Below are positions 11,047-50,809 of a stretch of DNA of 64,000 nt, in pieces. This stretch comes from an uncultured Lachnospiraceae bacterium (GTDB taxonomy: Bacteria > Bacillota > Clostridia > Lachnospirales > Lachnospiraceae). The notes under the pieces are model-generated. The model saw only the letters and a list, made by a program, of their open reading frames with translations, ran no database searches and had not been told where the DNA came from. Both the position numbers and the translations under genes were made by a program. How positions within the stretch are numbered: position 1 is the stretch's first letter; every line of letters begins with the position of its first letter. The stretch lies in contig CAMVNR010000002.1 in assembly GCA_947168905.1 (NCBI GenBank), positions 1,898 through 65,897 of the forward strand, written 5' to 3'.

Positions 11047-11133
11047 TAATCGGGGACAGGTTCCCCGAAAGACTGCGAAATGACACTGTGATGTATTTGC
11101 AAAAAAACGGGTCGGGTTTATAAGGAGTAAGTA

Positions 11134-12234
11134 ATGTCAGAACCAAAAAAAGAATGTGAAATTGTGCAGGATCTCCTGCCCTTATATGCGGAGAATATGG
11201 TATCTCCGGCAAGTAAGGAAATGATCGAAGCGCACCTTTCGGGGTGCGCGGACTGCAGCGCGGTCTATAGGCGCCTGAAAGCGCCGGAACCAGCGATTGA
11301 GAAGCATAAATCCGAGGCGGAAAGCCTGAAAAAGTTTGAGAAGAAGCGGAGACTGAGGCTTGGATGGCGGATCGCGCTGATCGTGATCGGGGCGGTTATC
11401 CTGCAGAGCCTTCTTGTAGGCGGCCTGGCATTTTTCCTGGCTTCAGACTTTGCCACCGGCGGCGTGAAGGACGACCAGGACGTCAGGAATTACAGCCGCT
11501 ACATGGGAGAAGAGGCGGAAGAAGAGTACCGCTCGAAATGGGGCATGGACCAGTCCATTTTCCCGGATAAGATCACCATGGACATGGAGGTTTTGGAATA
11601 CCGCATGACTTATTACAATCCCTGGGACGCACAGTACTTAAGCTATCTCACGGTGCAATATGACGATGCAGATTATGAGAAGGAACTCGCGCGGCTTCAG
11701 GCTTACGAATCGACGCCCTACAAGGGCTATTACGGCGTGACGGGCTTCCCGGATCCGGAAAACCCGATCGCAATGTTTGCAGACTCCTACAACGGCTTCG
11801 TCTATGCGATCCATACGCCCGGCGAGGATGGAGCATTTGAGGAGAACACGATCACCTATGTCATGATCATTTTCTGCAACTATTTCATGGACCTGAAATA
11901 CGAGAAGTACATTCCGGAGCGGTATCTGCCGGCTGGCTTCAACGCGCATTCCGGGAATCCCTATGAAAAGGAGAAGATGAATCGATCATCATTTCTCCCG
12001 GACTTTCCGGAGATTTCCGCGTACGGACATTCATCAGTGTACGGCGGTCAAGTCGCTCTGCGGCCGGGAGAATTTTTCTCCGGAAGCGCCGATGCTTTTT
12101 ACATTTTCCATAGATTCAATCTGCGGGCAGTTTACAGTTTGATATTCACCCACTGGCCCTTCTTTACGCGGATGTGCAGCAGCACCCAGCGGACAATCGC
12201 GTCAATATCGAAGCTGATCCAGGGTCCGAGATAG
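11134..12234 (+). CDS. Putative anti-sigma factor (zf-HC2 N-terminus, single TM, extracytoplasmic domain)
   Basis: CEIVQDLLPLYAENM...HLSGCADCSAVY zinc-finger motif, then TM segment IALIVIGAVILQSLLVGGLAFFLA. It lies directly downstream of the ECF sigma gene. The 3' ~100 nt overlap the convergent MATE gene. Confidence 0.7.
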   Translation: MSEPKKECEIVQDLLPLYAENMVSPASKEMIEAHLSGCADCSAVYRRLKAPEPAIEKHKSEAESLKKFEKKRRLRLGWRIALIVIGAVILQSLLVGGLAFFLASDFATGGVKDDQDVRNYSRYMGEEAEEEYRSKWGMDQSIFPDKITMDMEVLEYRMTYYNPWDAQYLSYLTVQYDDADYEKELARLQAYESTPYKGYYGVTGFPDPENPIAMFADSYNGFVYAIHTPGEDGAFEENTITYVMIIFCNYFMDLKYEKYIPERYLPAGFNAHSGNPYEKEKMNRSSFLPDFPEISAYGHSSVYGGQVALRPGEFFSGSADAFYIFHRFNLRAVYSLIFTHWPFFTRMCSSTQRTIASISKLIQGPR

Positions 12235-13556
12235 GCGAGATACGCGTTTGGGAAGGCTTTATTCAGCGGATAGCAGCAGATAAAGGTGAGGAGCGGCCGC
12301 AGGATCGCGACACTGATCAGAGAGACCAAAGCTACATAGCGTACGTCGCCCGCGCCGCGAAGGCAGCCGGCGAGCATGACACGCATATTCTGCGGATAGA
12401 TGCCGATCAGAAGCACCAAAAAGGAGACGGCGCAGCCGTAGATAACGATCCGGTCGTCAGTGAAAAGCTTCGGAAGCCAGTGCCTTCCGAAGAAGGTAAA
12501 GATCATGATCGCAAGCGACATGAAGATGGAGATCCGTTCACCGACGCGCACATAGGCCATTGCTTTCTTCTTGGTGTTCGCACCCAGCGACTGGCCGACG
12601 AGCGAGGTGCAGGCGGAGGAGACGCCGTCGCCGAGACAGAAGGTCAGGGAGCTGACCTGTCCGACGATCTGGGAAGCCGCGAAAGCCGCCGTTCCGACGC
12701 CCGCGATCAGTTTGCCGTTAATGAGGAAGCCGATCCGCATGCAGACAGATTCGAGAATCGTGCCGGAGCCGACCTTGATGATCGAGCCGAGGGTGGATTT
12801 GTCGAAGCGGAAGCCCTTAAAGGGGCGAAGCGACAGATAGCCGCCCTTCTGGAAGACGACGACGATGGCGATCAGGCTGGATACGCAGGTGCCGATCGCG
12901 GTCGCGATCGCGGCGCCTTTGACGCCTAAAGCCGGGAAGCCGAGGTGTCCGTTGATCAGGCAGTAGTTCAGGAAAATATTGACAAGGTTTGCCGAGACAT
13001 TGACAACCATCGTGATCCGGGTCTTGCCGATACCGCGCATCGCCGAGCAGATGCAGATTGCCCAGCAGTTCGGGATGAAGGCGAGCGAAATGATCTGGAA
13101 ATAAATGACCGCATCGTCGAGCGTATCCTCTGCGCCGCCCGCGAGTTTTAACAGGGGAACCGCGAGGATAACGCCGAGAACCGTCATCAGAATGCCGATG
13201 AAGGTGACAAGGAGGAGCGACTGCCGAAGACAGGAGTTCGCCGCGTCCTGCCGGCCTTCGCCTTTCCTCCGGGCAATGACGGCCATCGTTCCGGTGCAGA
13301 TCGCCTGCGCGACGAGAAGGATGATCATGCGGGGCTGGGCGCATAAGCCGACGGAGGTAATCGCCGCCGGTCCCAGCTTTCCGACCATCATCGTGTCGAA
13401 TGAATTCATTAATGTGAGAAGCAGTCCTTCCAGAGCCGCCGGCCAGGCGATCTGGAGGACTTTTTTGTACATGGAGCCGAGGCGCTCCGAATCCCCCTCG
13501 TCATGCTCATAGCGAAAGCCGAGGAGGAGACTTAAGGGTTTTGAATTAAATTCCAT
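12132..13556 (-). CDS. MATE family efflux transporter
   Basis: Polytopic (~12 TM) protein with MATE-like segments (AWPAALEGLLLTLMNSFDTMMVGKLG; GCLRGAGDVRY). I place the start at MEFNSKP (13556), not at the ORF-track 13805, because that extension overlaps the divergent sigma gene region. Confidence 0.85.
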   Translation of the reverse strand: MEFNSKPLSLLLGFRYEHDEGDSERLGSMYKKVLQIAWPAALEGLLLTLMNSFDTMMVGKLGPAAITSVGLCAQPRMIILLVAQAICTGTMAVIARRKGEGRQDAANSCLRQSLLLVTFIGILMTVLGVILAVPLLKLAGGAEDTLDDAVIYFQIISLAFIPNCWAICICSAMRGIGKTRITMVVNVSANLVNIFLNYCLINGHLGFPALGVKGAAIATAIGTCVSSLIAIVVVFQKGGYLSLRPFKGFRFDKSTLGSIIKVGSGTILESVCMRIGFLINGKLIAGVGTAAFAASQIVGQVSSLTFCLGDGVSSACTSLVGQSLGANTKKKAMAYVRVGERISIFMSLAIMIFTFFGRHWLPKLFTDDRIVIYGCAVSFLVLLIGIYPQNMRVMLAGCLRGAGDVRYVALVSLISVAILRPLLTFICCYPLNKAFPNAYLAYLGPWISFDIDAIVRWVLLHIRVKKGQWVNIKL

Positions 13557-23729: not shown

Positions 23730-25280
23730 ATGAATTATTATCTTGTAGACTATGAAAACGTGAAATCCCACGGTCTCGACGGCATCGTTAAAATGTCGCC
23801 GGAGGATGTGGTATGTATTTTTTACAGTGAAAATGCCGATACGATGACTTTTTCACTGCATCAGAAACTGAATGAGACCAGAGCTCAGGTCATCTACGAA
23901 AAGGTGGAGGTCGGAACGAAGAATGCGCTCGACTTCCAGCTGGTCACTGAGCTTGGCTATCTGATCCGGGATATGCAGGGCGAGCCGGTTGCGTTCTATA
24001 TTGTCAGCAAGGACAAAGGGTACGGCAACACGGTGGCTTACTGGCAGAAGCGCGGCGTGGCGATTTCCCAGGTCATCGATGTCAGCGGCCTCGACGAGGA
24101 AAAGATCGAGAATGACCTCAGGCTGAAGGTGGAACCGCTTGTCAGGGACAAGGAGGTCGTCGGCAAAGTCGTTAAAATGATCCTTCAGTACAAGACAAAG
24201 CAGGGCATCAACAATGCACTGATGAAGGAATTCCCGAGCAGCAACAATAAACGGGCGAGCGAAATATATACCGCGATCAAACCGCTTCTGTCGGATAAGA
24301 AGGGCAATGTCGCCCCGCAGCCGGCCGAAGGAAGAGACGAGAAGCCTGCAATGCCGCAATCCGGCACTGAAAAGAGAGCAGATCTCCTGCAGTGGAATTA
24401 TGAGAAAAAGGCGGACGGAGTCGTAAAAATTACGGAAAAGCCGGCTGAAGTGAAGCAGGAAGCGGCTCCCGGGAAGAAAGCAGCGCCCGCTGAAGACGCG
24501 GCGAGAAAACCCGCGGAAGAGAAGCCGGAAGCCAACAAGGCTGAGGTGAAGCCGGAAGCGAATAAAGCCGCAGAGAAAAAGCCGGAAGCCAGCAAGGCTG
24601 AGGTGAAGCCGGAAGCGAATAAAGCAGCAGAGAAAAAGCCGGAAGAAGAACGGCCTGCGGAAGAAAAACCTGCAGAGCTGAAGCAGGAAGAAGTGAAGCC
24701 TGCGGAAGGAAAATCTGCAGAAGCGAAGCCGGAAGATGTGAAGCTCGAAGAGAAGAAAACTTCCCGGGGAAAGCGCACAGATAAGAAGGCCGCAAAGGAT
24801 AAAGCGGCAGACAAAAAGCCCGCACAGGAGAAAGCCGCAAAGGATAAGGCGGCAGACAATAAGCCCGTGCAGGAGAAAGCCGCAGAAGAAAAGGCTGCAG
24901 CGGAAGCTGCGGCAGGTGAAGCCGCCGCAGGTGAGAAAAAGGCAGAAGATATCAGCCTTTCGGAAGCGATCGCCGCATCCGAAACACCGCTGAAAAAAGA
25001 AGCCGCACAGGAAAAATCCGAAAAGGCGCAGACGAAGCGCAGAAGGTCTTCCGGAAAATCGGCTGAAAAAAAGGCTTCCGGGAAGCAGACGGATGAAAAA
25101 GCGGCCGCTTCTGATGGCGCAGAAACCGTACCGGCTGCCGAAGCCGACGCGAAGCCCGTAAAGGAAGAGACAGAGCAGAAGCCTGCAAAGGAAGAAGCAG
25201 GCCGCTCAAGACGGAAGCCAAGGACCAGGAAACAGGAAGCAAAGAAGCAGGACGAGGCTTCTTTGACGGAAGAAGCTTAA
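23730..25280 (+). CDS. NYN/PIN-like N-terminal domain protein with long K/E/A/P-rich repetitive tail
   Basis: N-terminal ~130 aa carry acidic motifs in an NYN/LabA-like arrangement (YLVDYENV, NALDFQLV, IVSKDKGYGN). The C-terminal ~330 aa are low-complexity with tandem repeats. Confidence 0.7.
   Translation: MNYYLVDYENVKSHGLDGIVKMSPEDVVCIFYSENADTMTFSLHQKLNETRAQVIYEKVEVGTKNALDFQLVTELGYLIRDMQGEPVAFYIVSKDKGYGNTVAYWQKRGVAISQVIDVSGLDEEKIENDLRLKVEPLVRDKEVVGKVVKMILQYKTKQGINNALMKEFPSSNNKRASEIYTAIKPLLSDKKGNVAPQPAEGRDEKPAMPQSGTEKRADLLQWNYEKKADGVVKITEKPAEVKQEAAPGKKAAPAEDAARKPAEEKPEANKAEVKPEANKAAEKKPEASKAEVKPEANKAAEKKPEEERPAEEKPAELKQEEVKPAEGKSAEAKPEDVKLEEKKTSRGKRTDKKAAKDKAADKKPAQEKAAKDKAADNKPVQEKAAEEKAAAEAAAGEAAAGEKKAEDISLSEAIAASETPLKKEAAQEKSEKAQTKRRRSSGKSAEKKASGKQTDEKAAASDGAETVPAAEADAKPVKEETEQKPAKEEAGRSRRKPRTRKQEAKKQDEASLTEEA
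24528..24641 (+). repeat. Two tandem 57-nt coding repeats
   Basis: The unit gaagccaacaaggctgaggtgaagccggaagcgaataaagccgcagagaaaaagccg recurs at a 57-nt offset with 3 mismatches. It encodes EA(N/S)KAEVKPEANKAAEKKP. Confidence 0.85.
24789..24878 (+). repeat. Two tandem 45-nt coding repeats
   Basis: The units encode AAKDKAADKKPAQEK and AAKDKAADNKPVQEK. Confidence 0.8.
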
Positions 25281-26802: not shown

Positions 26803-27663
26803 AGCCGCCGCATTCTCTCCCGCAGTACCCCCTGGCCCCTCCCGCTGCGGCCGACTCTTTTTGCCCCGGCCCTCTGCCAGTCTTCCCGCCGGACGATCAT
26901 CCCCGGCAATTAACCGATACAACCCGCCCGGAGGCCTCCGCCCCCGGGCATCTTATTGTCTGCAGGCTTTTTCTGGTCGGGAGTATTTTCCGCATTGCCT
27001 TTTCGGGTTTTGGCTGCCTTTCTCACTAAAGCTCCCGCGGCACGTACGTCTAAAGGATTTTTGCGCGCCTCTTGCGGTGAACTCGCGCTGAGCGCGGAAG
27101 AAACACGATCACGGCGCCATTTTGATGGAAGTGGTATGGACTTATGGTGTTTCACAAGCGGTTTGCGGGAGCGGCACAAATGGAAGCCCGGCTTTTTCCG
27201 GCCCCGGGCTGTGCAGAATTGTCCGAGCGAGTATAAAGAAACACGGCGAGCGCCGTGTTTCTACCTCGCTCGACGCGAGTTTTCTGCACTCGGGGCCAAA
27301 AAGCCGGAAGCTTCCGTGCCGCGGGAGCTTGAGCGGTGAAACACCATAAGTCCATACCATTTGTACACAGATCTCTGCCGTGATCGTGTTTCTTTTTATG
27401 CGCTCAGACAGCACGCAAGGGATCGGCGCGCAATAATCCAAGACGTAGGGTGCCGCTCGACGCAAATCGTTCGAAAGGCAGTCCAAAATCCGAAGCGGCA
27501 AATCGACAGCTGATCCGACCAGAAAAAGCCGCCTTCAAAAAACCCGGGGGCGGAGGCCTCCGGGCGGAAAACTTTTGGATGACTGCCGGGGATGACGGCC
27601 CGGCGGGGAAGAGAGAGTGCAGCGGGGGAGTCAGGTGCCGGGGCGGGAGAGGATGCGGCGGGC
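26803..27663. repeat. Long diverged inverted duplication (imperfect palindrome) centred at 27249/27250
   Basis: The left arm aligns with the reverse complement of the right arm. Perfect blocks are 26924-26948 with 27543-27567 (25 nt) and 27133-27155 with 27336-27358 (23 nt). The central hairpin is gaaacacggcg-ag-cgccgtgtttc (27238-27261). The outer ends are homologous to the last codons of the CDS at 27631-27663. Confidence 0.85.
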
Positions 27664-29169
27664 GACGTTCGCGCCGTTGCCGATGACGGGAGCCATGCCA
27701 TCGCCGCCGGCGCCGTGGGCTCCGGTGAAGTAGAGGCCGGAGATGAATTCCTCGGCTTCGGGGGTCATTGTGCGGGCGACCGTGTGGTCGCGCATCGAGT
27801 GGCTGTAACCGTAGACGCCGCCGTAGGGGGAGCCGACGTAACGGGCGAAGGTCATCGGAGTCTCGATGACAATTTCCGCGATATGGTCCGAGAGCGGTAC
27901 GCCGAGGGCTTCGCTCATGTCGTCGATGAGTTCCTTCGCAAGCTCGTGGCGGACGAGGTCATAATTGTCCGCCGTTACGGACTGCCAGGCCTCCACCCGG
28001 GGCATCATCGTGACACTGAAGGAAGTATAGCCCTCAGGGGTTGCGGATGGATTCGCGTTATTGAGGCAGATCGAGGCGGTGGTACGGCTTCCGCGCAGGT
28101 CTTTCAGCTCGGCGAAGAGCTCATCCGAATTCATGTGCGCAGCGTGAAACCAGCAGTAATCCTGAAGGTGCAGCGCTTCTTTTGGCTGATCGAGAATCAG
28201 AATTACCGAGAAGGCTGTCAGGTTCATCCGGCGGGAATGGACCATTTGAAGGGCTTCTCTCGGAACTTCCGAGGCGGGTTCGATCATCGACTGATAGACC
28301 CGCGTCGGATAGGCGCCCGAGACGACGATGTCTGAATGGATTTCGTCGCCGCGCGCCGTGCGTACGCCCGTTACCCGGCCGTTTTGGACCAGGATCTTTT
28401 CGACTTTCTGGCGGTATTCGATCTGAACGCCAAGCGATTCAGCGCGCTCGGCGAGCTTCAGGCTCATCTCGTGACTCGTCTTCTTCGGAATGTACGCTCC
28501 GTGGCCGATATATTCATTCATGACAACCGAGTAGACCGTGAAAGGAAGGTCCGATAAAGGAGCGCCCACATAAATCCAGTAGGGGGACAGAATCTCGCGG
28601 ACCTTTTCCGGGAGATGAAAGGCTTCCATCACTTCGCCTGCCGAATAGCCAAGCGTACGGACAAATGGCAGGTGATGGCGCAGAATATGCAGCACATTTT
28701 TCATTTCTTCCTGGAGCGTCGTCGCGCTTTCCGAGCAGATCCGGCAGAAATCCAGGAATTCGAGCACCTGCTTTCGGGAGCCGGGGCAGACCTCTTCAAT
28801 CTCGGATGCAAAAGTGTCAAATCCGGGGTGAAAAGTCCTGTCAAGGTGCGGCAGGCACAGATGGTAGGCGTCCGGTACCGGGAGCCAGTCGACGAAAACC
28901 CCGTGCTTTTCGAGGAGCTTTCGAATCCTTCTGGGCTCATCCTTAGAGCCGATTTCCATCATTTCATGCAGAGCGGCTTCCATTTCGAAGCCGCCCCGGA
29001 CAAAGCTGGTGGCAATCCCGCCGGGCAGGTTGTGCTGCTCGAGAATCAGTACCGACTTTCCCGCTTCTGCCAGTGAAATGGCGAGCGTCAGGCCGGCGAG
29101 AGCGCCGCCGATCAGGATCGCGTCATAATGTTCTTTATAATAGTTCAATGGTTTTCCCTTCAGCAACAT
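27631..29169 (-). CDS. FAD/NAD(P)-dependent oxidoreductase, phytoene desaturase (CrtI)-like family
   Basis: N-terminal dinucleotide-binding motif DAILIGGALAGLTLAISLAEAGKSVLILEQHNLPGG. The ~510-aa length and C-terminal GAHGAGGDG segment are typical of CrtI-like flavoproteins. Confidence 0.8.
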   Translation of the reverse strand: MLLKGKPLNYYKEHYDAILIGGALAGLTLAISLAEAGKSVLILEQHNLPGGIATSFVRGGFEMEAALHEMMEIGSKDEPRRIRKLLEKHGVFVDWLPVPDAYHLCLPHLDRTFHPGFDTFASEIEEVCPGSRKQVLEFLDFCRICSESATTLQEEMKNVLHILRHHLPFVRTLGYSAGEVMEAFHLPEKVREILSPYWIYVGAPLSDLPFTVYSVVMNEYIGHGAYIPKKTSHEMSLKLAERAESLGVQIEYRQKVEKILVQNGRVTGVRTARGDEIHSDIVVSGAYPTRVYQSMIEPASEVPREALQMVHSRRMNLTAFSVILILDQPKEALHLQDYCWFHAAHMNSDELFAELKDLRGSRTTASICLNNANPSATPEGYTSFSVTMMPRVEAWQSVTADNYDLVRHELAKELIDDMSEALGVPLSDHIAEIVIETPMTFARYVGSPYGGVYGYSHSMRDHTVARTMTPEAEEFISGLYFTGAHGAGGDGMAPVIGNGANVARRILSRPGT

Positions 29170-29193
29170 GGCCGATCAATTTCTGCTTCAGGA

Positions 29194-29541
29194 TCAGTCC
29201 TCGGCCTCAATCTGTCTGATCACACATTCATTCCCCTGTACAAGCCAGGTCTCCCCGGAGCCGCAGTTCGGGCATACGCGGCCGTACTTCACGGTCTCGT
29301 AGGTGCTCCTGCAGCTGTCGCACCAGGTCAGTGCCGGTATGATTCCGATATGAAGCTCAGCTTCCGAAAGCACCGGATGCTTCCTGCGGAAGTAATTCCA
29401 GCAGTCCTCGAAATAATCGGTGACAATCCCGCTGACTTCGCCGACGTCAAGCGTCACGGAGCCGATCTTCGTGAGGCCTTCCTCCCGGGCGGTTTCCTCC
29501 AGCGTCTTGGCAAGGTGAATGACAATTCCCATTTCGTGCAT
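29194..29541 (-). CDS. hypA: Hydrogenase/urease-type nickel metallochaperone HypA
   Basis: N-terminal MHE Ni-binding motif (MHEMGIV) and a zinc site of two CxxC pairs (CDSC...CPNCG). 115 aa. Confidence 0.85.
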   Translation of the reverse strand: MHEMGIVIHLAKTLEETAREEGLTKIGSVTLDVGEVSGIVTDYFEDCWNYFRRKHPVLSEAELHIGIIPALTWCDSCRSTYETVKYGRVCPNCGSGETWLVQGNECVIRQIEAED

Positions 29542-29543
29542 CG

Positions 29544-32477
29544 TTACACCCTGGTTTCGTCGCCGTCCATCAGATCCTTCAGGTCGACCGCGTTTCCGGT
29601 GTGCGGATGCGTCTTGTGGAATTCCTTGGTGGATTCGTTGTATTCTTTGCGTTTCTTCCGCATCTCCTTCGCTTCCTCGGAGCCGCTGTTCTTAATGATC
29701 TTGAAGCCGCGCTTCAGGGCGTAGGACAGCAGACCGCCGACCTTGTCCTCGGCCCGGCGCATATCGGAATTGTCCGGATGGTCGCGCAGAAGATGAATCG
29801 CGTCAAATTCGCAGCGGGTGGTGCACAGGCCGCAGCCGATGCACTTGTTGGGATCGACAACGGAGGCGCCGCAGGAAAGGCAGCGTGCGGTTTCGGTCTT
29901 TACCTGCTTTTCGGTGAGCGTCAGCCTCGGATCCCGGAAGCCGTGCTTCGGATCGATGGAAGGATCCGTCGGAGGGACTTCGCGCTTTGCCGAGTCATAG
30001 GAATCGATCGCGATGTTGTTTTTGTCGAGCTCCTTGAAGTAGCGACGGTCACGTCCGAGACGCTGGGAGACATTGTTCTTCGAAACAAAGCGCGCGAGGG
30101 ATTCGGCGGCTTCATGGCCCTGGCCGATGGCGTCGATCACGAATTTCGGCCCTGTGAAGACATCTCCGCCGACGAAAACGGCAGGATCCTCTGTCTGATA
30201 GGTGAAGGGGTCGGCGATGGGATAAGCGCCCCGGAAGGTGACCTTCGTTCCTTTGAGAAGATTGCCCCACTGAATCGCCTGGCCGATCGCGAAGACAATG
30301 TGATCCGCTTTCACCGTGATGGTATCCTCTTCATCGTATGCGGGAGAGAATTTGCCGGTCGCAGGATCAATGGTGCGAAGGCAGCGCTTCAGGACGAGGC
30401 CGCATACTTTTCCGCTTTCATCCGTCAGGACCTCCTTCGGGCCCCAGCCGGCGTTAATGACGACGGATTCTTCCTCCGCTTCCTGGATTTCCTCGGCAGA
30501 GGCAGGCATGGTTTCACGCGACTCGAGGCAGAACATGGAAACCTTTTCGGAACCGAGTCTTCCGGCCGTTCTCGCGCAGTCTATCGCTACGTTTCCGCCG
30601 CCGATTACGACGGTTTCGCCGGGAAGCTCCCGGATATTGCCGCCGAGCGCGTTCTCCAGGAAATGAACTGCGATGTCGGTGCCTTCGGCGGTTTCATTCG
30701 GGATGCCGGGAAGACGGCCGCCCTGACAGCCGATGGCGACGTAGAAGGCCTCATAGCCCTGCTTTTTCAGTTCTTCAATCGTAATATCTTTGCCGACTTC
30801 GACGCCGCAGCGTATTTCGGCGCCGAGTGCACGGATGATATCGATTTCAGCGTCGATAACGTCTTTTTCGAGCTTGTAGGCCGGAATGCCGTAGGTCATC
30901 ATGCCGCCCGGCTTTTCATGCTTCTCGAATACCGTCGGCCGGTAGCCGCGCTGGGCGAGGTAATAAGCGCAGGAAAGCCCTGCGGGGCCGGCGCCGATAA
31001 TCGCGATTTTCTGCGGCCATTCGCCGGTTAAATTGTTGATGTTTTTCTTCGGAATATAGCGCGTTTCCGCGTGAAGATCGCGCTCCGCGAGGAATTTCTT
31101 AACGTCGTCGATGGCGACCGGCTGGTCGATCGTGCCCCTCGTACAGGCGTCTTCACAGCGCTTGTTGCAGACTCTGCCGCAGATCGCCGGGAAGGGATTT
31201 TCGCGCTTGATGAGCGCAAGCGCTTCGTCGTAGCGGCCTCCTCTGGCCATCTTCAGGTAGCCCTGGATGGAAACGTGCGCCGGGCAGGCGGCCTTACAGG
31301 GCGCGGTGCCTGTTTTGTGTGTGTTGACGCGGGCGGTATCCCGGTAATTTTCGTCCCAGGCGTACTTGCCCCAGCGAAGCGCGTCCGGAATCGGCGCCTT
31401 CGGGTAGCTGACCTCGGAGCCGTCCTTTTGGCAGAGCTTCTGGCCGAGTTTTACGGCGCCGGCGGGGCAGACCTCGACACAGCGTCCGCAGGCGACACAG
31501 TTTTCCTTGGTCACCTGTGCGGTATAGGCGCTCTTCGACATGTTCGGCGTATTGAAAAGAAGCGAGGTCCGAAGCGCATTGCAGATCTGCACGTTGCAGT
31601 TGCAGATGTCGAAAATATGATCCTCGCCGTCGATATTAGTGATCTGGTGAACGTATCCGTTCTCTTCGGCCTTCTGCAGGATTTCAAGCGCCTTTTCCTT
31701 GGTGATGTAATGTGCGCGGCCGGTTTCGACGGTGTAGTCCGCCATATCGCCGAGCTGGATGCACCAGTCGTTTTCGTCATCCGTGCAGCCTTCTCCGAGC
31801 TTGGCGCGCGAGTAGCGGCAGGAACAGATGCCTGCTGCGATGTGTCCGTCGTATTTCTGCAGCCAGTAGGAGATTTTCTCGATCGATGCGGCTTCCCGGG
31901 TCATCTGGACTTCTTTCTCTACCGGAATGACATGCATGCCGATGCCGTTTCCGCCGGGGCGGACCATCGGCGTAATGTGCTCGAGGGGAAGGAAGGTCAT
32001 GCGCTCAAACATGCGGGCGACGGCGGGATTCTTATCCACCCGGTCCTGAGAGGAATTAAAAAGCTCCGCAGAACCCGGCACGAAATAGCTCGTGCGGTAG
32101 CGCTTTTCTTTCGGCGCGCCCTTCACCGGCCCGTTGTCGTCGTAGTGATCGCCGTAATCGTATTCGACAAAACCATGGGTGCAGAGAAGTTTCAGCGCTT
32201 CTTTGAAGCGCTTTTCGCCGAGTGCGGCATTCATTTTCAGAAGCTCTTCCTCTGTGTACCATTTGCGCTGCTTCATCGACAGGGCGATATCCACCTCGTC
32301 CTCGTTCAGGATTTCCCTGAGTCCCCAGTATTCCTCGTCGGTTGTTTTGAGACCGAAAAGCTTGTGCGGGACATTGTCGGTGATTTTCGCGCCGAGCTTC
32401 GCATATTTCTTATGAAGCGTCGCCTCACCGTCGTACTTCGATTTGGTTTCCGGATTCTGGTCATATATTTCCGGCAT
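29544..32477 (-). CDS. Large multi-[4Fe-4S] FAD/NAD(P)H oxidoreductase (GltD/NfnB-like core, Cys-rich N-terminal domain, C-terminal ferredoxin domain)
   Basis: 977 aa. Ferredoxin motifs CVACGRCVEVCP and CIGCGLCTTRCE. GltD-like segment CGRVCNKRCEDACTRG, then KIAIIGAGPAGLSCAYYLAQRG and VVIGGGNVAIDCART. The N-terminal ~340 aa carry unusual Cys motifs (ICSCRYSRAKLGEGC...WC; CNCNVQIC). Confidence 0.8.
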   Translation of the reverse strand: MPEIYDQNPETKSKYDGEATLHKKYAKLGAKITDNVPHKLFGLKTTDEEYWGLREILNEDEVDIALSMKQRKWYTEEELLKMNAALGEKRFKEALKLLCTHGFVEYDYGDHYDDNGPVKGAPKEKRYRTSYFVPGSAELFNSSQDRVDKNPAVARMFERMTFLPLEHITPMVRPGGNGIGMHVIPVEKEVQMTREAASIEKISYWLQKYDGHIAAGICSCRYSRAKLGEGCTDDENDWCIQLGDMADYTVETGRAHYITKEKALEILQKAEENGYVHQITNIDGEDHIFDICNCNVQICNALRTSLLFNTPNMSKSAYTAQVTKENCVACGRCVEVCPAGAVKLGQKLCQKDGSEVSYPKAPIPDALRWGKYAWDENYRDTARVNTHKTGTAPCKAACPAHVSIQGYLKMARGGRYDEALALIKRENPFPAICGRVCNKRCEDACTRGTIDQPVAIDDVKKFLAERDLHAETRYIPKKNINNLTGEWPQKIAIIGAGPAGLSCAYYLAQRGYRPTVFEKHEKPGGMMTYGIPAYKLEKDVIDAEIDIIRALGAEIRCGVEVGKDITIEELKKQGYEAFYVAIGCQGGRLPGIPNETAEGTDIAVHFLENALGGNIRELPGETVVIGGGNVAIDCARTAGRLGSEKVSMFCLESRETMPASAEEIQEAEEESVVINAGWGPKEVLTDESGKVCGLVLKRCLRTIDPATGKFSPAYDEEDTITVKADHIVFAIGQAIQWGNLLKGTKVTFRGAYPIADPFTYQTEDPAVFVGGDVFTGPKFVIDAIGQGHEAAESLARFVSKNNVSQRLGRDRRYFKELDKNNIAIDSYDSAKREVPPTDPSIDPKHGFRDPRLTLTEKQVKTETARCLSCGASVVDPNKCIGCGLCTTRCEFDAIHLLRDHPDNSDMRRAEDKVGGLLSYALKRGFKIIKNSGSEEAKEMRKKRKEYNESTKEFHKTHPHTGNAVDLKDLMDGDETRV

Positions 32478-32523
32478 GTTTCATTCCCTCCCTCAAAGAA
32501 TCATATGTTTGTTTTTCCTTAAG

Positions 32524-33192
32524 CTAACGGCCGCTCTGTTCCTGCCAGTCTTTCAGACTTTCAAGAAGCCAGCGCTCAAGTTCGGCCATTCCTTCTCCTG
32601 TCTTCGCACTGACCGGGAAAATACATATTTTCGGGTTCAGCTTCTTCGCACGCTGAATGCATTTTTCCACCTGGAAGTCAAAATAGGGCAGCGCGTCGAG
32701 CTTTGTTATGACAAGCGCATCGGATTTCTGAAATATCAGCGGGTATTTTAAGGGCTTGTCGTCGCCCTCCGGAACACTCAGTATCATGACGGAAAGCGCG
32801 GCCCCTGTATCATATTCGGCAGGACAGATCAGGTTTCCGACGTTTTCAAGAAAGGCAAGGCGGCTTCTTCCCGGGGTGAGCGCGCGTACAGCCTCGGCGG
32901 TCATCCCGGCGTCCATGTGGCACATTCCGTCCGTGTGCACCTGGACGGCTTCGGCGCCGAGCGCTTCGATCCTTCCCGCGTCCACAGTTGATGCGATATC
33001 CGCCTCCAGGACGGAGATGCCGGTTTCGGGAAGATCGCGGATAATCCGGGAAAGCAGCGTGGTCTTTCCGGCGCCGGGACTTGACATCAGGTTGATAAGA
33101 AGGGTGCCCTGACGGCGCATTTCTTCCCGAAGAGCCGCTGCTTCCCGGTCATTTCCTGCGGTGACAGAGGCGTGGAGTTCAATAACCTTCAT
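32524..33192 (-). CDS. hypB: Nickel-incorporation GTPase HypB
   Basis: P-loop SSPGAGKTTLL, metal-binding GMCHMDA, ENVGNLICPAE, and switch/NKxD-like ITKLD. 222 aa. Confidence 0.9.
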   Translation of the reverse strand: MKVIELHASVTAGNDREAAALREEMRRQGTLLINLMSSPGAGKTTLLSRIIRDLPETGISVLEADIASTVDAGRIEALGAEAVQVHTDGMCHMDAGMTAEAVRALTPGRSRLAFLENVGNLICPAEYDTGAALSVMILSVPEGDDKPLKYPLIFQKSDALVITKLDALPYFDFQVEKCIQRAKKLNPKICIFPVSAKTGEGMAELERWLLESLKDWQEQSGR

Positions 33193-33932
33193 TCGTATTC
33201 CTCCTTCCCTGCGCTTAAGTATCTTTTCGCCGAGATTTTCTGATCAAGAAAACGGCAGAATTCATCGTAGCCTTCCCCGGTTTTTGCCGAGACAAAGAAG
33301 ACGGAAAGATCCGGATTCAGTGCCAGGGCTCTTTGTACTGCCAGATCCCTGCTGAAATCGAAAATGCCTTCGGTATCGGTTTTACTGATCAGCAGGGCAT
33401 CGCTGATACTGAACATCAGGGGATATTTTAAGGGCTTGTCGTCGCCCTCCGGAACCGACAGAATCATGATCCGAAGATCCGCTCCGACCTCAAATTCCGC
33501 GGGACAGACCAGGTTTCCGACATTTTCGAGAATCACGAGATCCAGGTCTTTGATATCAAAAGCCAAAAGCCCTCTCCCCGTCATGTCGGCGTCCATATGG
33601 CAGAGTCCGCCTGTGTGCAGCTGGATCACCCTGGTGCCGGTTTTTCCGATCGCGGCTGCATCCGTGTCTCCGTCCGCATCCGCTTCCATGACGCCGATGC
33701 GGTACTTTTCCCGAAGCTTTTCAATGATCTTAAGGATCGTGCTTGTCTTCCCGGCGCCGGGGCTTCCCATGAGATTTACAAGAAAGCTTCCGTTTTGTTT
33801 CAGGCATTCCCGGTTTTTTTCGGCAGCTTTCCCGTTGTCCGCGAGTACCTGCTCCCGGACTTCGACGATACGGTATGACCGATTTTGCATTTCAGTATTT
33901 TCCATAACGCTCAGTATACCAGAAAATTCCAC
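33189..33932 (-). CDS. HypB-family GTPase, second paralog
   Basis: GSPGAGKTST, GGLCHMDAD, ENVGNLVCPAE, ISKTD. ATGA overlap with the downstream hypB. The exact start is uncertain (GTG at 33932 or internal ATGs at 33905 and 33890). Confidence 0.8.
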   Translation of the reverse strand: MEFSGILSVMENTEMQNRSYRIVEVREQVLADNGKAAEKNRECLKQNGSFLVNLMGSPGAGKTSTILKIIEKLREKYRIGVMEADADGDTDAAAIGKTGTRVIQLHTGGLCHMDADMTGRGLLAFDIKDLDLVILENVGNLVCPAEFEVGADLRIMILSVPEGDDKPLKYPLMFSISDALLISKTDTEGIFDFSRDLAVQRALALNPDLSVFFVSAKTGEGYDEFCRFLDQKISAKRYLSAGKEEYE

Positions 33933-33964
33933 CTTTTGGCAACAGGTAAACTGCTTTTGCGAGA

Positions 33965-34741: not shown

Positions 34742-35512
34742 ATGCTTGAACTGAAGAATATTTCCTTTATGGTAGATGACGAAGGGACGGATAAGGAGAT
34801 CATCCGGGATGTGTCTCTCACGATTCCGGACCGCAGGATGGTCGTAGTGACCGGCCCGAACGGAGGCGGCAAATCAACACTTGCGCGACTCATTGCGGGA
34901 ATCGAAAAACCGACGTCGGGGCAGATTCTGTTTAACGGCGAAGATATTACAGAGAAAAGTGTTACGGAGCGGGCCAGGCTCGGCATCGGCTTTGCCTTCC
35001 AGCAGCCGGTGAAATTCAAGGGCATCCGTGTCATTGACCTGATCCGGCTGGCGTCGGGAAATCCGCGGCTCACCACGGCGAACGCCTGCGAATACCTGTC
35101 GGCTGTCGGACTCTGCGCCGTCGATTATATCGACCGGGAGGTGAATTCCAGCCTTTCGGGCGGAGAGCTGAAAAGAATCGAGATCGCGACGGTCATTGCG
35201 CGCGCGACCAGGCTGTCGGTCTTTGACGAGCCGGAAGCCGGTATTGACCTCTGGTCCTTCCAGAACCTGATCGAAGTCTTCAAAAGACTCCGCGAACATA
35301 TCGAGGACAGCTCGATTATGATTATTTCTCATCAGGAACGGATTCTGGCGATTGCGGACGAGATTGTCGTATTAAAGGACGGTGTCGTGGAGAAACAGGG
35401 ACCCCGTGAGGAAATCCTTCCCGAACTCCTCGGAACGACATCGGCGGTTCCGAGCTGCCGGGTTGTGCAGGAGCAGGACAGCCTTGCGAAAAATACGGCT
35501 GTGAACGGATGA
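34742..35512 (+). CDS. sufC: Fe-S cluster assembly ATPase SufC
   Basis: Walker A GPNGGGKST, ABC signature LSGGELKRIEI, Walker B VFDEPEAGID, H-loop ISHQ. No membrane domain. A SufB/D-type gene follows. Confidence 0.85.
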   Translation: MLELKNISFMVDDEGTDKEIIRDVSLTIPDRRMVVVTGPNGGGKSTLARLIAGIEKPTSGQILFNGEDITEKSVTERARLGIGFAFQQPVKFKGIRVIDLIRLASGNPRLTTANACEYLSAVGLCAVDYIDREVNSSLSGGELKRIEIATVIARATRLSVFDEPEAGIDLWSFQNLIEVFKRLREHIEDSSIMIISHQERILAIADEIVVLKDGVVEKQGPREEILPELLGTTSAVPSCRVVQEQDSLAKNTAVNG

Positions 35513-36456
35513 GGGGAGGATCAAGGAAGATGAAAAAGCCTGATGAAATTCAGCTGAGGCTCTTAAGAGAAGTGGCCGACCTGCACGACATTCCCGAAGG
35601 CGCCTACAATATCCGCGCGAACGGAGCGTCGGCCGGCAGAAGATCGACAGAGAATATTGAAATCATTTCGAAGACCGATGTGAGCGGCCTTGAGATCCAT
35701 ATTAAACCCGGAACGAAAAAGGAAAGCGTGCATATCCCGGTCGTGCTGACAGAGACCGGCTTAAAGGAAGTGGTGTACAACGATTTCTTCATCGGCGAGG
35801 ATGCTGAGGTCGTGATCGTCGCGGGCTGTGGCATCGACAACTGCGGGCCGAAGGACTCCCAGCATGACGGAATTCACCGTTTCTATGTCGGAAAGAACGC
35901 GAAGGTCCGCTACGTCGAGAAGCATTACGGCTCGGGTGACGGTACCGGAAAGCGCATCCTGAATCCCGGAACCGAGGTCTACCAGGAGGAAGGCTCTTCT
36001 GTCGAGATGGAAATGGTGCAGATCAAAGGCGTCGATGACACGATCCGCACGACGACGGCAGAGCTTGCAGCCGGCGCGAAGCTGGTGGTGCGCGAGCGGC
36101 TGATGACGCACGGAGAGCAGAACGCAGTTTCAACCTATGTGATTCACCTGAACGGCGACGGTTCCTCCGCGGATGTCGTGTCCCGTTCGGTTGCCCGCGA
36201 TCATTCCTTCCAGAAATTCGATGCGAAGATCGTCGGGTCCGCTGCCTGCTCCGGTCATACGGAATGCGACTCGATCATTATGGATCAGGGACGGATCCTG
36301 GCAGTGCCGGGACTGGAGGCAAACTCCGTGGACGCCGCGCTCGTCCATGAAGCCGCGATCGGCAAGATCGCCGGCGACCAGATCATCAAGCTCATGACGC
36401 TCGGTCTGACGGAAGCCGAGGCCGAAGAGCAGATTATCAACGGTTTCTTACGCTGA
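35509..36456 (+). CDS. SufB/SufD family Fe-S cluster assembly protein
   Basis: C-terminal signature region VDAALVHEAAIGKIAGDQIIKLMTLGLTEAEAEEQIINGFL. ATGA overlap with sufC; an alternative start MKKPDE lies at 35530. Confidence 0.8.
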   Translation: MRGGSRKMKKPDEIQLRLLREVADLHDIPEGAYNIRANGASAGRRSTENIEIISKTDVSGLEIHIKPGTKKESVHIPVVLTETGLKEVVYNDFFIGEDAEVVIVAGCGIDNCGPKDSQHDGIHRFYVGKNAKVRYVEKHYGSGDGTGKRILNPGTEVYQEEGSSVEMEMVQIKGVDDTIRTTTAELAAGAKLVVRERLMTHGEQNAVSTYVIHLNGDGSSADVVSRSVARDHSFQKFDAKIVGSAACSGHTECDSIIMDQGRILAVPGLEANSVDAALVHEAAIGKIAGDQIIKLMTLGLTEAEAEEQIINGFLR

Positions 36457-36624: not shown

Positions 36625-37329
36625 TTGTTTGCCGGGAAGGGGGCATTATCGTTGAGAAGGACAAAACTTGATCCAGAGATCATCATCAATGCTATGGAGG
36701 ATTATCTGGCAGGGCTCATCAGCAAAGAGGCTATAGCTAGAAGGCTTGAGGTCAGCTTGTCCAGCGTAAAACAGTGGGTGTTGAATTACCAGTCAATGGG
36801 CGAGAGCGCTTTTACCGAAAGCGGAAACAAGCATTACTCCAAGGAGCTAAAGGAACAGGCTGTGAAGGATTATCTTTCCGGGGAGGTTTCCTTGTATGAG
36901 ATCTGTAAAAAGTACAAAATTAAGTCAACTCGTCAGCTCCGAAACTGGATAAATGTGTATAATGGTCATGGGAAGCTGAAAGCTTCCGGAACAGGAGGAA
37001 CAGTCATCATGACCAAAGGCAGGAAAACCAGCTTCGATGAAAGAGTGGAGATCGTCCGGTACTGCATCGCGCATGACCATAATTATGCAGAGACAGCAGA
37101 GAAATACGGCGTATCCTATCAGCAGGCCCGGAGCTATACAGTCAAATATGAAGCTGGTGGTATCGATGCCCTGCAGGACAGGAGGGGCCGTACAAAACCG
37201 CTGGAGGAGATGTCCGAGCTGGAGAGGCTGCGGGCAGAGAACAGGATACTGCGGGCAGAAAAAGAGCGAGCGGAAATGGAGGTATCATTCTTAAAAAAAC
37301 TCGACGAGATAGAGAGGAGGCGGGGCTGA
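36625..37329 (+). CDS. IS3-family transposase OrfA (HTH domains, leucine-zipper-like C-terminus)
   Basis: Two HTH-like segments (ISKEAIARRLEVSLSSVKQWV; HNYAETAEKYGVSYQQARSYTVKY) and a coiled-coil end LERLRAENRILRAEKERAEMEVSFLKKL. Confidence 0.8.
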   Translation: MFAGKGALSLRRTKLDPEIIINAMEDYLAGLISKEAIARRLEVSLSSVKQWVLNYQSMGESAFTESGNKHYSKELKEQAVKDYLSGEVSLYEICKKYKIKSTRQLRNWINVYNGHGKLKASGTGGTVIMTKGRKTSFDERVEIVRYCIAHDHNYAETAEKYGVSYQQARSYTVKYEAGGIDALQDRRGRTKPLEEMSELERLRAENRILRAEKERAEMEVSFLKKLDEIERRRG

Positions 37330-38228
37330 GCCTAGTCAGACATACACAGGTCTACCAGGCGATCAGGGAAGAACACGAAAAACATGGATATCCGGTCGAA
37401 GCGCTTTGTGCGCTGGGACATGTAAGCCGCTCAGCATACTATAAGTGGCTCCACAGGGAAATCCCCGCCTGCGAGGCGAAGAACCTGCGGATCGCCGAAG
37501 AGATCGAGAACATCCATATGGAGAGCCCGGACAAGGGCTACCGGCGGATCCGTGACGATCTGGAGCGGTATCATGGAATCAGGGCAAACGATAAACGAGT
37601 GCTGCGGATCTGCCGCAGGAAAGGAATCAAGTCCACGATCAAGTATTCCAACCATGGCTGCACCAGACAGTCCGCAAATCCCCAGTTCATCGCGGAAAAC
37701 CTGTTGAACAGGGAGTTCACAGCCGATGCGCCGAATCAAAAATGGCTGACGGATGTCACGGAATTCAAGTACTATGTTGGCATTGAGGTCCATAAGGTCT
37801 ATCTAAGTGCCATTCTTGACTTATATGACCGGAGGATTGTGTCTTACGTAATCAGAGATTTCAACAACAACGCCCTGGTATTCGACACGTTTGACAGGGC
37901 TGCTGAAAAGAATCCATATGCAACACCCCTTTTCCATTCGGACAGGGGATATCAGTACACGAACCGAGACTTTCATAAGCGACTTGAAAAGGCAGGAATG
38001 ACGCAGAGTATGTCCAGGGTCGCAAAGTGCATTGACAACGGTCCGATGGAAGGCTTCTGGGGTATCCTGAAACGGGAAAGATACTATGGCAGGCGTTTCA
38101 CTGACCGGGAATCCCTGGTAAAGATGATAGAAGAATACATCGAGTACTACAACAACAGACGGCTGCAGAGAAACCTGGGTGTTCTGACGCCGATGGAGAA
38201 ACACGAACAATATATGGCGGCAGCATAA
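37293..38228 (+). CDS. IS3-family transposase OrfB (DDE/rve integrase core), expressed as OrfAB by -1 frameshift
   Basis: The -1 frame is open from the A7 run (37293-37299) and reads ...VSRSAYYKWL...GYRRI.... The DDE core includes WLTDVTEF, HSDRGYQYT and DNGPMEGFWGILKRE. Confidence 0.8.
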   Translation, partial: KKTRRDREEAGLSLVRHTQVYQAIREEHEKHGYPVEALCALGHVSRSAYYKWLHREIPACEAKNLRIAEEIENIHMESPDKGYRRIRDDLERYHGIRANDKRVLRICRRKGIKSTIKYSNHGCTRQSANPQFIAENLLNREFTADAPNQKWLTDVTEFKYYVGIEVHKVYLSAILDLYDRRIVSYVIRDFNNNALVFDTFDRAAEKNPYATPLFHSDRGYQYTNRDFHKRLEKAGMTQSMSRVAKCIDNGPMEGFWGILKRERYYGRRFTDRESLVKMIEEYIEYYNNRRLQRNLGVLTPMEKHEQYMAAA

Positions 38229-46074: not shown

Positions 46075-47961
46075 GGGCAGTTAAAAAAGTCCCAATGACA
46101 CGAGCCCGGTGAAGACCGGGCTCAAAGTCTGTTTGCATATATTTTTTTCATAATAAACCCGCCGTTTTTGTAGTAAATACGGCGGGTTTCTGGGATAATT
46201 AAAGTATGCTAAAACCAAATCATACCGATAAATATTATACTCCCATTCAGTTGAAATTGCCACTGGAAATTGAAAGAATTATTGATATTTCAGATCCGGT
46301 GTACAGTTTCAATGAGATCATGAATCACATCGACCTGAAAGAACATCTCACAGTGAAGGAGCACGGGATCGGTCGTCCAAGGTGTGATTCCGTGAAGATG
46401 CTGAAAATCATCCTTTTTTCGTTCATGGAGAACGGTTATCTCTCCCTCGGGAACATCGAAAAATCCTGCAAAACCGATATCCGATACATGTGGCTTCTGG
46501 ATGGGATGAAGCCTCCGACATATGTCACTTTCGGAAACTTCATTAAGAATGAACTATCAGAATCCGTAGAGGAAATCTTCGGCGTAGTCAACCGAAGCAT
46601 CTTTGACTATGAGCATGTCGATACCGATCATGCCTACATTGACGGGACAAAGATTGAAGCCAATGCCAACAAGTACACATGGGTCTGGAAAAAGTCCTGC
46701 ACGAGGAACCGCGACAAGGTCTTTTTGAAGGTCACCGGTCTCATTGAGAGAATTAATGCCGAAGATCTTTTGTATTTTGGAGTGAGATTTGAGCCCCGTT
46801 CAGAATACGCCATTGAATACATAGATCAGATGTTGGAGTCATATCAACTGACGATGGGGATTGACGAATCAACTTTTGTCAGCGGAAAGGGACACCATAA
46901 GAGTAACGTTCAGAGAAAGTATGAGGAACTAAAAGGATACCGTGACCGGCTGAAGAACTATGCGAGGCATATAGAAATCTGCGGGGAAGCCCGGAACAGT
47001 TATTCAAAGACAGATCACGGGGCGACTTTTATGCGTGTTAAAAGAGACTACATGGGGAATGACCAGCTTCTGCCGGCATACAACATGCAGGCTGTGATCT
47101 GTGACGAATATATTGCAGCGATCGACGCAAAACAATACGCTTCGGATATGGATTGTTCTGATGGAAAAGTTCAGAGACATTTACGGTCATTATCCGAAGT
47201 ATCCTGTGGCTGATGCCGGGTATGGCTCCTACAACAATTATCTTTATTGTGAGGAACACGGCATGGAGAAGTACATGAAATTCACGATGTATGACAAGGA
47301 AAGCAAAGATCCAAAGTACAGGGAGAATCCATTCCGGGCAGTAAACTTTAAAAAGGGCGCAGACGGTAATCCTGTGTGTCCGAATGGGAAGAGATTCAAT
47401 TTCAAGTATGACCAGCATGTACGAGGCAACAAGTATGGGCGGACTGAGGAAGTCTATGAATGTGAAAGCTGCGAAGGGTGTGAGCTGAAGGGCAAGTGTT
47501 CAAGGAGCAGAGGAAACCGGAAGATACAGATCAACCGGGAGTTGACGGCGATCCATAAGGAGGTTCTGGAAAACCTGGACAGCGTACAGGGAGCCTTGTT
47601 AAGAATGAATCAGAGCATCCAGGCAGAGGGAACATATGGAAGTATGAAATGGAATCGGTCATACAAAAGGGCATTTAGACGAGGGTTAAAAGACGTAATT
47701 CTGGAGTTTACGCTGATAGCGATCGGTTTCAACTGGTGGAAATATCACAATAAGACACAGCGTTTGGAAGAAAGCGCATAAAGGCAGAGAAAAACAATCA
47801 TTGAAAAAAGCTGGAATTGGCCTCCGGCTTTTTAGAGGACGGAGAAAAAGATAAAAATAGACCACCAGAAATGATAAAACAATTTTAAAAAAGAATCAGA
47901 CCATCGGGATGGATTAAAACCCAATGGTCTGATTCTTTAAAGAGACTTTTTTAACAGCCCC
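46075..47961 (+). mobile_element. IS1182-family insertion sequence (complete ends, frameshifted transposase)
   Basis: Terminal inverted repeats GGGGCAGTTAAAAAAGTC (left) and GACTTTTTTAACAGCCCC (right). The element is visibly more AT-rich than its flanks. The internal transposase reading frame is split in two. Confidence 0.8.
46206..47781 (+). pseudogene. IS1182/IS5-like DDE transposase, interrupted by one frameshift near 47150-47165
   Basis: ORF 46206-47213 ends ...ICDEYIAAIDAKQYASDMDC. The overlapping ORF 47101-47781 continues in another frame with LMEKFRDIYGHYPKYPVADAGYGSYNNYLYCEEHGMEKYMKF, the expected continuation through the second catalytic Asp region. Confidence 0.75.
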
Positions 47962-50788: not shown

Positions 50789-50809
50789 CAAATTGATCCC
50801 CCTGTTCAA

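Follow-up and report, generated by a model that had tools for sequence, protein, structure and literature searches.

HypA and HypB deliver nickel to [NiFe]-hydrogenase and, in Helicobacter pylori, to urease. We describe here a gene cluster in which the genes of both chaperones are wrapped around a 977-residue iron-sulphur (FeS) flavoprotein oxidoreductase, on a 64,000-nucleotide stretch of DNA, called the window throughout, from an uncultured Lachnospiraceae bacterium (GenBank assembly GCA_947168905.1, contig CAMVNR010000002.1, positions 1,898 to 65,897 of the forward strand). The closest described system is the isoprene-induced operon isrA-hypA-hypB-ferredoxin-hypA of Acetobacterium wieringae ISORED-2, whose genome is without [NiFe]-hydrogenase and hypCDEF (Kronen et al. 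2023, mSystems, PMC10134865). Its product IsrA, a putative isoprene reductase of 901 residues, has an unassigned N-terminus of ~270 residues, four canonical [4Fe-4S] clusters, FAD, NAD(P)H, and a "Cys6" site that includes CxC motifs at Cys180/182 and Cys254/256; the published model brings the six cysteines together where the FeS chain ends, next to a predicted substrate tunnel (PMC10134865). IsrA was proposed there as the nickel client, with Cys6 at the tunnel end as the likely nickel site, and of 988 IsrA homologs 73% have hypA, and 56% hypB, no more than five genes away (PMC10134865). In Pelotomaculum, hypA was 373-fold and hypB 585-fold up with isoprene (2026 preprint).

The window cluster is a run of five consecutive open reading frames (ORFs) on the minus strand, 27631-33932, in the order hypB-hypB-oxidoreductase-hypA-CrtI-like (Table 1). 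The two hypB genes overlap by 4 nt, the second ends 46 nt before the oxidoreductase gene, and gaps of 2 and 24 nt lead to hypA and then to the CrtI-like gene; the ORF listing agrees exactly with the layout, overlap and gap sizes given by the first-pass annotation, an earlier model reading of the same DNA. Judged on sequence by its architecture, cysteine spacing and synteny, the locus is another member of the IsrA-like family, of a different subclade: the window has the traits used for "clade 9", namely the domain architecture, two CxC motifs ~74 residues apart, and hypA and hypB within five genes. The idea of the flavoprotein as nickel client, put forward in the first-pass annotation, had already been published for the IsrA family by Kronen et al. 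2023 (PMC10134865), so that the annotation rediscovered a published, still unproven hypothesis. We read the locus, with a probability of roughly 60%, as an operon in which an IsrA-like oxidoreductase is encoded together with metallochaperones dedicated to it, and the pairing of HypA and HypB with the oxidoreductase probably marks a new nickel enzyme.

The 977-residue protein itself is not on record by exact sequence look-up; more than 120 full-length homologs at 67-84% identity were found, all of them annotated as "FAD-dependent oxidoreductase" only. About 290 N-terminal residues without a Pfam match are followed by Fer4 (~320-341), Fer4_20 (390-468), Pyr_redox_2 (490-787) and a second Fer4 (873-894). 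Residues ~372-900 match the large subunits of NfnABC and StnABC, NfnI-L, DPD and GltD, both by sequence comparison (E 5e-93 to 1e-39) and by fold (Foldseek, ~425-553 aligned columns, E 1e-41 to 1e-28), the latter with a full-length AlphaFold2 model of good quality (predicted local distance difference test, pLDDT, 91.2; predicted TM-score, pTM, 0.91). The equivalog cutoffs for GltD and NfnB are all missed (TIGR01316, 277 vs 472 bits; TIGR01317, 196 vs 448; PRK12771, 452 vs 516), and neither partner subunit gene, GltB or NfnA, is present in the window. No sequence match in the PDB was found before residue 372. The isolated N-terminal domain gave a poor AlphaFold2 model (pLDDT 63, 10-sequence alignment), and a Foldseek search with this low-confidence model returned nothing under E 0.009, only weak, non-significant winged-helix matches.

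A search with the N-terminal domain against 1.84 billion representative proteins found 1030 clusters at E<=1e-3 and 87 at E<=1e-30. Among the matches are full-length relatives of 883-945 residues from other subclades, which share 42-53% identity with the window protein across about 860-940 residues. In an alignment of 69 sequences, which includes relatives at 34-54% identity, the invariant residues of this domain include C218, C220, C294, C299 and H277, and C239 and C292 are conserved in at least 90% of the sequences; C231 is swapped for other residues in distant family members. The spacing between the two CxC motifs is 74-75 residues in every subclade checked.

Related loci were collected by a GTDB scan (one genome per species) with patterns from the N-terminal domain, in which at least 559 stretches encode a relative; the best 80 loci were fetched, mostly from rumen and gut metagenome-assembled genomes (MAGs) of Clostridia, Lachnospiraceae, Erysipelotrichaceae and Bacilli. 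The hyp neighbours were counted by tblastn with the window proteins in the 68 loci with enough flank; the counts of other neighbours given below refer to 83 related loci. The hypA gene directly adjoins the oxidoreductase gene in 60 of the 68 loci, directly downstream in 53 and directly upstream, in the order hypB-hypA-oxidoreductase, in 7; hypB is present in 50 loci, as one copy in 39 and two in 11. In the first three relatives (84, 76 and 69% identity) hypA lies immediately downstream, with two, one and zero hypB genes upstream, respectively. The closest relative, L006 (about 81% nucleotide identity), keeps SufBD-SufC, hypB-hypB-oxidoreductase and hypA. Outside the fetched set, a search with P0185 as the query (a relative that shares 45% identity with the window protein) recovered proteins of Clostridium isatidis and Metaclostridioides mangenotii whose genes also stand in the order hypB-oxidoreductase-hypA; among the matches listed were Clostridium and spirochaete homologs only, with no Acetobacterium entry. 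The C. isatidis cluster (L086) continues after hypA with a DUF5692 membrane protein and a CbiM/PDGLE nickel/cobalt uptake component (11081-13075). DUF5692 also flanks the cluster of M. mangenotii (L088, 6137-7060). The pairing of hypA with the oxidoreductase gene is not accidental.

The chaperones themselves are well preserved. The two window HypBs, 50% identical to each other, score 226 (hypB1) and 224 bits (hypB2) against the HypB equivalog TIGR00073 (cutoff 121), and both carry GAGKT, CH and NVGNLxCP; for the 222-residue protein the best solved relative is H. pylori HypB (PDB 4LPS, E 2e-44), with the nickel ligands of the CH and CP motifs aligned. HypA reaches 106 bits against PF01155 (cutoff 28.9), and H. 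pylori HypA (PDB 6G81) aligns with it at the MHE (residues 1-3) and at both CxxC pairs. Across the related loci MHE and both CxxC pairs are kept in 49 of 49 HypA copies, and the P-loop, CH and CP motifs in 34 of 35 HypB copies; an E. coli-type CxxCGC or His-rich N-terminus was found in none of the 35. The motifs first read from the letters (MHE and zinc CxxC pairs in HypA, P-loop and CH in both HypBs) are thus borne out by the alignments with solved proteins and the motif listing. Synteny conservation, which had been named beforehand as a test, came out in favour, in two gene orders, and the view of the flavoprotein, with its Cys-rich N-terminal domain, as a client of HypA and HypB outside the hydrogenases gains support from it and from the conserved metal ligands of the chaperones.

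The neighbourhoods of related loci also bear on the substrate. In an unbiased clustering of neighbours, with which the Pfam matches agree, an acyl-ACP (acyl carrier protein) thioesterase, ACP and AMP-binding ligase recur on one strand, followed by a ~470-residue flavoprotein, the CrtI-like gene, an FNR-type reductase with 2Fe-2S, a second oxidoreductase paralog, the main oxidoreductase and hypA. The ~470-residue flavoprotein (L042, 5580-6968; L057, 7549-8949) has a close homolog in PDB 2B9W (E 7e-138 and 4e-114), which we take to be the linoleate isomerase of Propionibacterium acnes (PAI), an enzyme that turns linoleate into the conjugated diene t10,c12-CLA (CLA, conjugated linoleic acid). PMC13365329 cites both this isomerase and the 2006 paper on its structure. 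A PAI-like gene lies within 10 kb of the oxidoreductase gene in 21 of the 83 loci, and one group of loci has a tight isomerase-hypB-hypA-oxidoreductase operon; in L057, 3 nt separate PAI from hypB and hypB from hypA, and the hypA ORF as called runs into the oxidoreductase gene. The CrtI-like protein of the window matches PF01593 (67.7 bits) and falls under every curated carotenoid-enzyme cutoff (TIGR02734, 117 bits vs 238), and the window holds no carotenoid pathway genes. It has, by appearance, an ordinary FAD amine-oxidase/CrtI fold, with no conserved Cys/His-rich site; orthologs (43-55% identity) occur in 9 of the 83 loci, beside PAI-like and FNR-2Fe2S genes. The gene thus lies outside the conserved core and is a recurring, not universal, accessory partner. 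Two observations on lipases are recorded separately: a Lipase_3 gene lies directly upstream of the oxidoreductase gene in L003-L005 (L003, 8054-9619), and the window encodes, 16 kb from the operon, an 889-residue protein with a class-3 lipase domain (48140-50809, minus strand); a link to fatty-acid release may or may not hold.

The PAI-like and acyl-handling neighbours suggest conjugated fatty-acid reduction, as in rumen biohydrogenation. IsrA and strain Y reduce conjugated dienes, and the rumen and gut clade would therefore reduce conjugated fatty-acid dienes, the reductive step of biohydrogenation. We offer the fuller form of this idea tentatively, and with the odds against it: the rumen and gut clade of the gene would be the long-sought biohydrogenation reductase, a nickel FeS flavoenzyme matured by HypA and HypB that saturates the conjugated dienes made by PAI, from CLA to trans-18:1 and perhaps further, possibly on ACP-bound chains, with the CrtI-like protein as a second isomerase or saturase. 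Kronen et al. mention neither isomerases nor linoleate, and only an oleate hydratase near the A. woodii homolog (PMC10134865); beyond that paper we found no literature link of PAI-type isomerases or a CLA reductase to hyp genes, nickel or this enzyme family.

In the mechanism that we favour, NAD(P)H electrons would enter the 977-residue enzyme at its GltD/NfnB-type FAD module, the direction of flow being the one we infer, and travel over four [4Fe-4S] clusters to the N-terminal domain, where the two CxC motifs and further cysteines (C218, C220, C239, C292, C294 and C299) would make up a special metal site; the invariant H277 belongs to this domain too. Ni(II) would be loaded onto HypA by the two HypB GTPases, possibly paired as a heterodimer, and HypA would insert it at or next to the cysteine site. 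The outcome may be an FeS centre that contains nickel and reduces C=C bonds of the non-activated, probably conjugated, kind; for the rumen and gut clade the most likely substrate would be an unsaturated fatty acyl chain with conjugated double bonds, rather than isoprene, and the CrtI-like flavoprotein may have an accessory role in that pathway, likewise on double bonds. What the sequences show is the gene content, the domain architecture, the conservation of the cysteines and chaperone ligands, and the conserved synteny; the nature of the metal (nickel), its insertion into the N-terminal domain, the direction of electron flow and the substrate are what we infer, with somewhat better than even confidence.

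Several points weigh against this reading. Hyp genes are missing from the surroundings of the oxidoreductase gene in 8 of the 68 loci, and within 8 kb of a homolog in a spirochaete MAG (L087). Nickel is so far a proposal for every member of the IsrA-like family. The window HypA stays under the TIGR00100 equivalog cutoff (70.4 vs 88.1 bits), and the CH/C site of HypB takes zinc besides nickel, so that the metal is not fixed by sequence. With only 64 kb of the genome visible, a [NiFe]-hydrogenase may therefore lie elsewhere in it. As to the substrate, there is no PAI homolog in the window and no CrtI-like gene in L006, the closest relative, and the fatty-acid reading is therefore drawn from the related loci only.

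The surroundings of the spirochaete homolog are of a different kind and are noted in their own right. In L087 (509-3615 and 11705-16098) the oxidoreductase gene has as neighbours a CbiA-like ATPase, a BcrAD/BadFG activator and two genes of the HGD-D (2-hydroxyacyl-CoA dehydratase) type, with a CBASS-like SMODS/SAVED pair upstream.

An alternative for the substrate is that the enzyme reduces isoprene, a terpene or another hydrocarbon, like IsrA, the fatty-acid genes near some homologs reflecting a different sub-function. Isoprene and 1,3-butadiene are reduced by IsrA and strain Y, terpenes have been suggested for homologs (PMC10134865), and genes for PAI, ACP, the ligase and the thioesterase are all missing from the window. 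The window protein, however, shares only 42-53% identity with the other subclades checked, Acetobacterium strains whose homologs are 47-49% identical to IsrA do not reduce isoprene (PMC10134865), and it is the window's own clade (66-85% identity in the N-terminal domain) that is linked to PAI-like and acyl-handling genes. We regard a hydrocarbon substrate as rather doubtful.

The metal can be questioned in the same way. The chaperones may be dedicated to the flavoprotein and handle zinc, iron or cobalt instead, or HypA may act mainly as a scaffold in the folding or assembly of an all-iron Cys6 cluster, such as a double-cubane or P-cluster-like centre. The G3E GTPase family has zinc and cobalt chaperones too, CbiM-type transporters carry cobalt as well as nickel, and the sub-cutoff score of HypA and the zinc binding of the HypB site point the same way. 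Kronen et al. remarked on the resemblance of Cys6 to double-cubane and P-type clusters (PMC10134865). Set against this are the nickel-specific N-terminal MHE, present in every HypA copy examined, and the fit of the window HypBs to the HypB model rather than to UreG, MeaB or CobW (226 bits vs <=41). Another metal, or an all-iron site, is to our mind unlikely, and nickel remains the preferred reading.

HypA and HypB might also serve a conventional nickel enzyme encoded elsewhere ([NiFe]-hydrogenase, urease or carbon monoxide dehydrogenase, CODH), their position around the flavoprotein gene being incidental. The Pfam scan of 41 ORFs found no hydrogenase subunits, HypC-F, urease, CODH/ACS (acetyl-CoA synthase), LarA or nickel transporter in the 64-kb window, in line with the absence of a nickel enzyme first noted; no hydrogenase large or small subunit or HypC, D, E or F was found in the flanks of the related loci examined either. 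An Rfam scan of the whole window gave no match to a nickel/cobalt or other riboswitch, and CbiM and DUF5692 are absent, by tblastn, from the window and from the 83 rumen-clade loci. The limited view of the genome speaks for this explanation, as do the scores of both HypBs above the curated equivalog cutoff and the [NiFe]-hydrogenases present in Pelotomaculum genomes with IsrA-like genes (2026 preprint). Against it stand the adjacency of hypA in 60 of 68 loci, in two gene orders and across MAGs of Clostridia, Erysipelotrichaceae and Bacilli as well as the Clostridium relatives; the gaps of 2-30 nt, which indicate co-transcription; and the same linkage in A. wieringae ISORED-2, which has no [NiFe]-hydrogenase or hypCDEF (PMC10134865). 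We consider an incidental position very improbable.

That the CrtI-like flavoprotein, whose gene lies 24 nt past hypA in the same operon, and not the 977-residue enzyme is the client, as the first-pass annotation had also allowed, was rejected and is scarcely credible, given that the gene occurs in only 9 of 83 loci, is absent from L006 while hypA stays beside the oxidoreductase gene, and encodes no conserved Cys/His-rich site.

If nickel is confirmed, the IsrA-like family would be a new class on the short list of nickel enzymes, and the function of HypA and HypB would reach beyond hydrogenase and urease, in a family that the GTDB scan places widely among anaerobes. Biohydrogenation influences the CLA and trans-fat content of milk and meat. 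With a linoleate-isomerase homolog and acyl-ACP handling genes near the oxidoreductase genes of the rumen and gut clade, these neighbourhoods provide a concrete, cloneable candidate for the reductive steps of biohydrogenation, and this lead makes an old question directly testable. For the window alone, the gain is one more member recognised in a family to which the literature had already drawn attention; the lead from PAI and the acyl genes goes beyond Kronen et al. 2023.

Table 1. Features of the hyp-oxidoreductase operon and of a related extended cluster. Positions are those of the window unless a related locus (L number) is named.
Feature	Position	Strand	Remarks
hypB paralog 1 (G3E GTPase metallochaperone)	33189..33932	-	247 aa from GTG at 33932; GAGKT, LCHMDA and NVGNLVCP motifs
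hypB paralog 2	32524..33192	-	222 aa; overlaps paralog 1 by 4 nt
IsrA-like FeS flavoprotein oxidoreductase, proposed HypA/HypB client	29544..32477	-	977 aa; Pfam and NCBIfam domains
N-terminal domain, residues 1-320	31518..32477	-	no Pfam family, no solved homolog; Cys-rich part follows the region with weak winged-helix matches
First CxC motif, C218-S-C220 (CSC), putative Cys6 metal site	31818..31826	-	translation; C218, C220 invariant
C239, WCIQ motif, putative Cys6 site	31761..31763	-	kept in at least 90% of 69 sequences
Second CxC and extra cysteine, C292-N-C294...C299 (CNCNVQIC)	31581..31604	-	translation; C294, C299 invariant, C292 at least 90%
CxxCxxCxxxC [4Fe-4S] motif, residues 327-337	31467..31499	-	translation; Pfam Fer4/Fer4_6
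Fer4_20, residues 390-468, two-[4Fe-4S] domain of DPD, GltD, NfnB	31074..31310	-	PF14691, 71.6 bits
FAD and NAD(P)H module (Pyr_redox_2, residues 490-787), GAGPAG and GGGNVA motifs	30117..31010	-	PF07992, 92.5 bits; glycines invariant
C-terminal ferredoxin-type Cys motif, residues 866-889, CLSCGASVVDPNKCIGCGLCTTRC	29811..29882	-	translation; PF00037 match
hypA	29194..29541	-	115 aa; starts 2 nt past oxidoreductase gene
CrtI-like FAD flavoprotein	27631..29169	-	512 aa; 24 nt downstream of hypA
Promoter-like site TTGCCA-18 nt-TATACT, extended TG	33913..33942	-	consensus match only; upstream of/overlapping hypB1 start
Extended cluster (thioesterase ... oxidoreductase, hypA)	L046 115-13299; similar in L042, L044, L047, L048, L084		second paralog ~936 aa, CxC motifs kept

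The start of hypB1 is ambiguous, with in-frame ATG codons at 33905 and 33890 besides the GTG at 33932. The promoter-like match overlaps this GTG; yet the ortholog in L006 is a 248-residue ORF with an ATG start. The consensus scan found 3 promoter-like sites in the region vs 3.3 expected by chance, and the promoter and terminator scans as a whole gave matches at chance level only.

Divergent from the operon, a SufC-like ABC ATPase and a SufBD-core protein are encoded at 34742-36456 (plus strand). They were rejected as a conserved partner of hypB, being adjacent only in L006 and not across the family. IS3-type transposase ORFs, helix-turn-helix and then rve integrase core, adjoin the Suf genes (36625-38228), and a DUF772 transposase (46206-47213) lies in a low-GC stretch (GC 0.43 at 46-48 kb of the window). 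Elsewhere in the window, a PIN7-domain protein (23730-25280, plus strand) carries a low-complexity, Lys/Glu/Ala/Pro-rich tail of ~400 residues with repeated KPEANKAAEKKPE-like units, accompanied by a strong AT skew of 0.36, and a 1650-residue protein (54398-59350, plus strand) combines a clostripain (C11) peptidase domain with BspA-type leucine-rich repeats.

Compared with known systems, the chaperones have their closest solved relatives in H. pylori HypA and HypB, with which they share the MHE nickel site and Zn(Cys)4 site of HypA and the GTPase fold with the CH...C bridging metal site of HypB. The canonical N-terminal CxxCGC and His-rich sites are missing from the window HypBs, and HypA stays under its equivalog cutoff; the neighbour here, unlike in canonical Hyp nickel delivery, is a flavoprotein, with no hydrogenase, urease or HypCDEF nearby. 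The redox module has in common with NfnB, the NfnABC and StnABC large subunits, GltD and the N-terminal module of DPD two [4Fe-4S] clusters and the FAD and NAD(P)H sites. It differs from NfnB, GltD and DPD in having no NfnA, GltB or DPD catalytic partner, in missing all NCBIfam equivalog cutoffs, and in an extra N-terminal part of 370 residues whose Cys6 site has no counterpart in solved structures. The A-cluster of ACS (Ni-Ni-[4Fe-4S], Cys-Gly-Cys) and the double-cubane proteins also place Cys-x-Cys beside an FeS electron chain, with a low-potential centre proposed for small unsaturated molecules, a resemblance noted in PMC10134865; this is an analogy only, as no sequence or fold similarity to the window enzyme was detected, and ACS is matured by AcsF/CooC, not by HypA and HypB. 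Metformin hydrolase, a nickel-dependent ureohydrolase, is likewise a nickel enzyme outside the hydrogenases, but it has an unrelated fold and a hydrolytic dinickel site, as opposed to a redox FeS flavoprotein; by term count, hypA and hypB are named several times in each of two papers on it (PMC11399263, PMC10927577).

With IsrA, compared by its published description, the differences lie in length (901 vs 977 residues, the window N-terminus being about 38 residues longer), in gene content (one hypB and two hypA there, two hypB and one hypA here) and in the accompanying genes: in place of its ferredoxin gene the window has the CrtI-like gene and no stand-alone ferredoxin gene of the N-domain kind. 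The host here is probably among rumen or gut Clostridia, and the substrate is probably different. What the two share is the domain order (unassigned N-terminal domain, Fer4, Fer4_20, FAD/NAD(P) module, Fer4), hypA and hypB in the same operon, and CxC pairs 74 residues apart, C218/C220 and C292/C294 in the window protein and Cys180/182 and Cys254/256 in IsrA.

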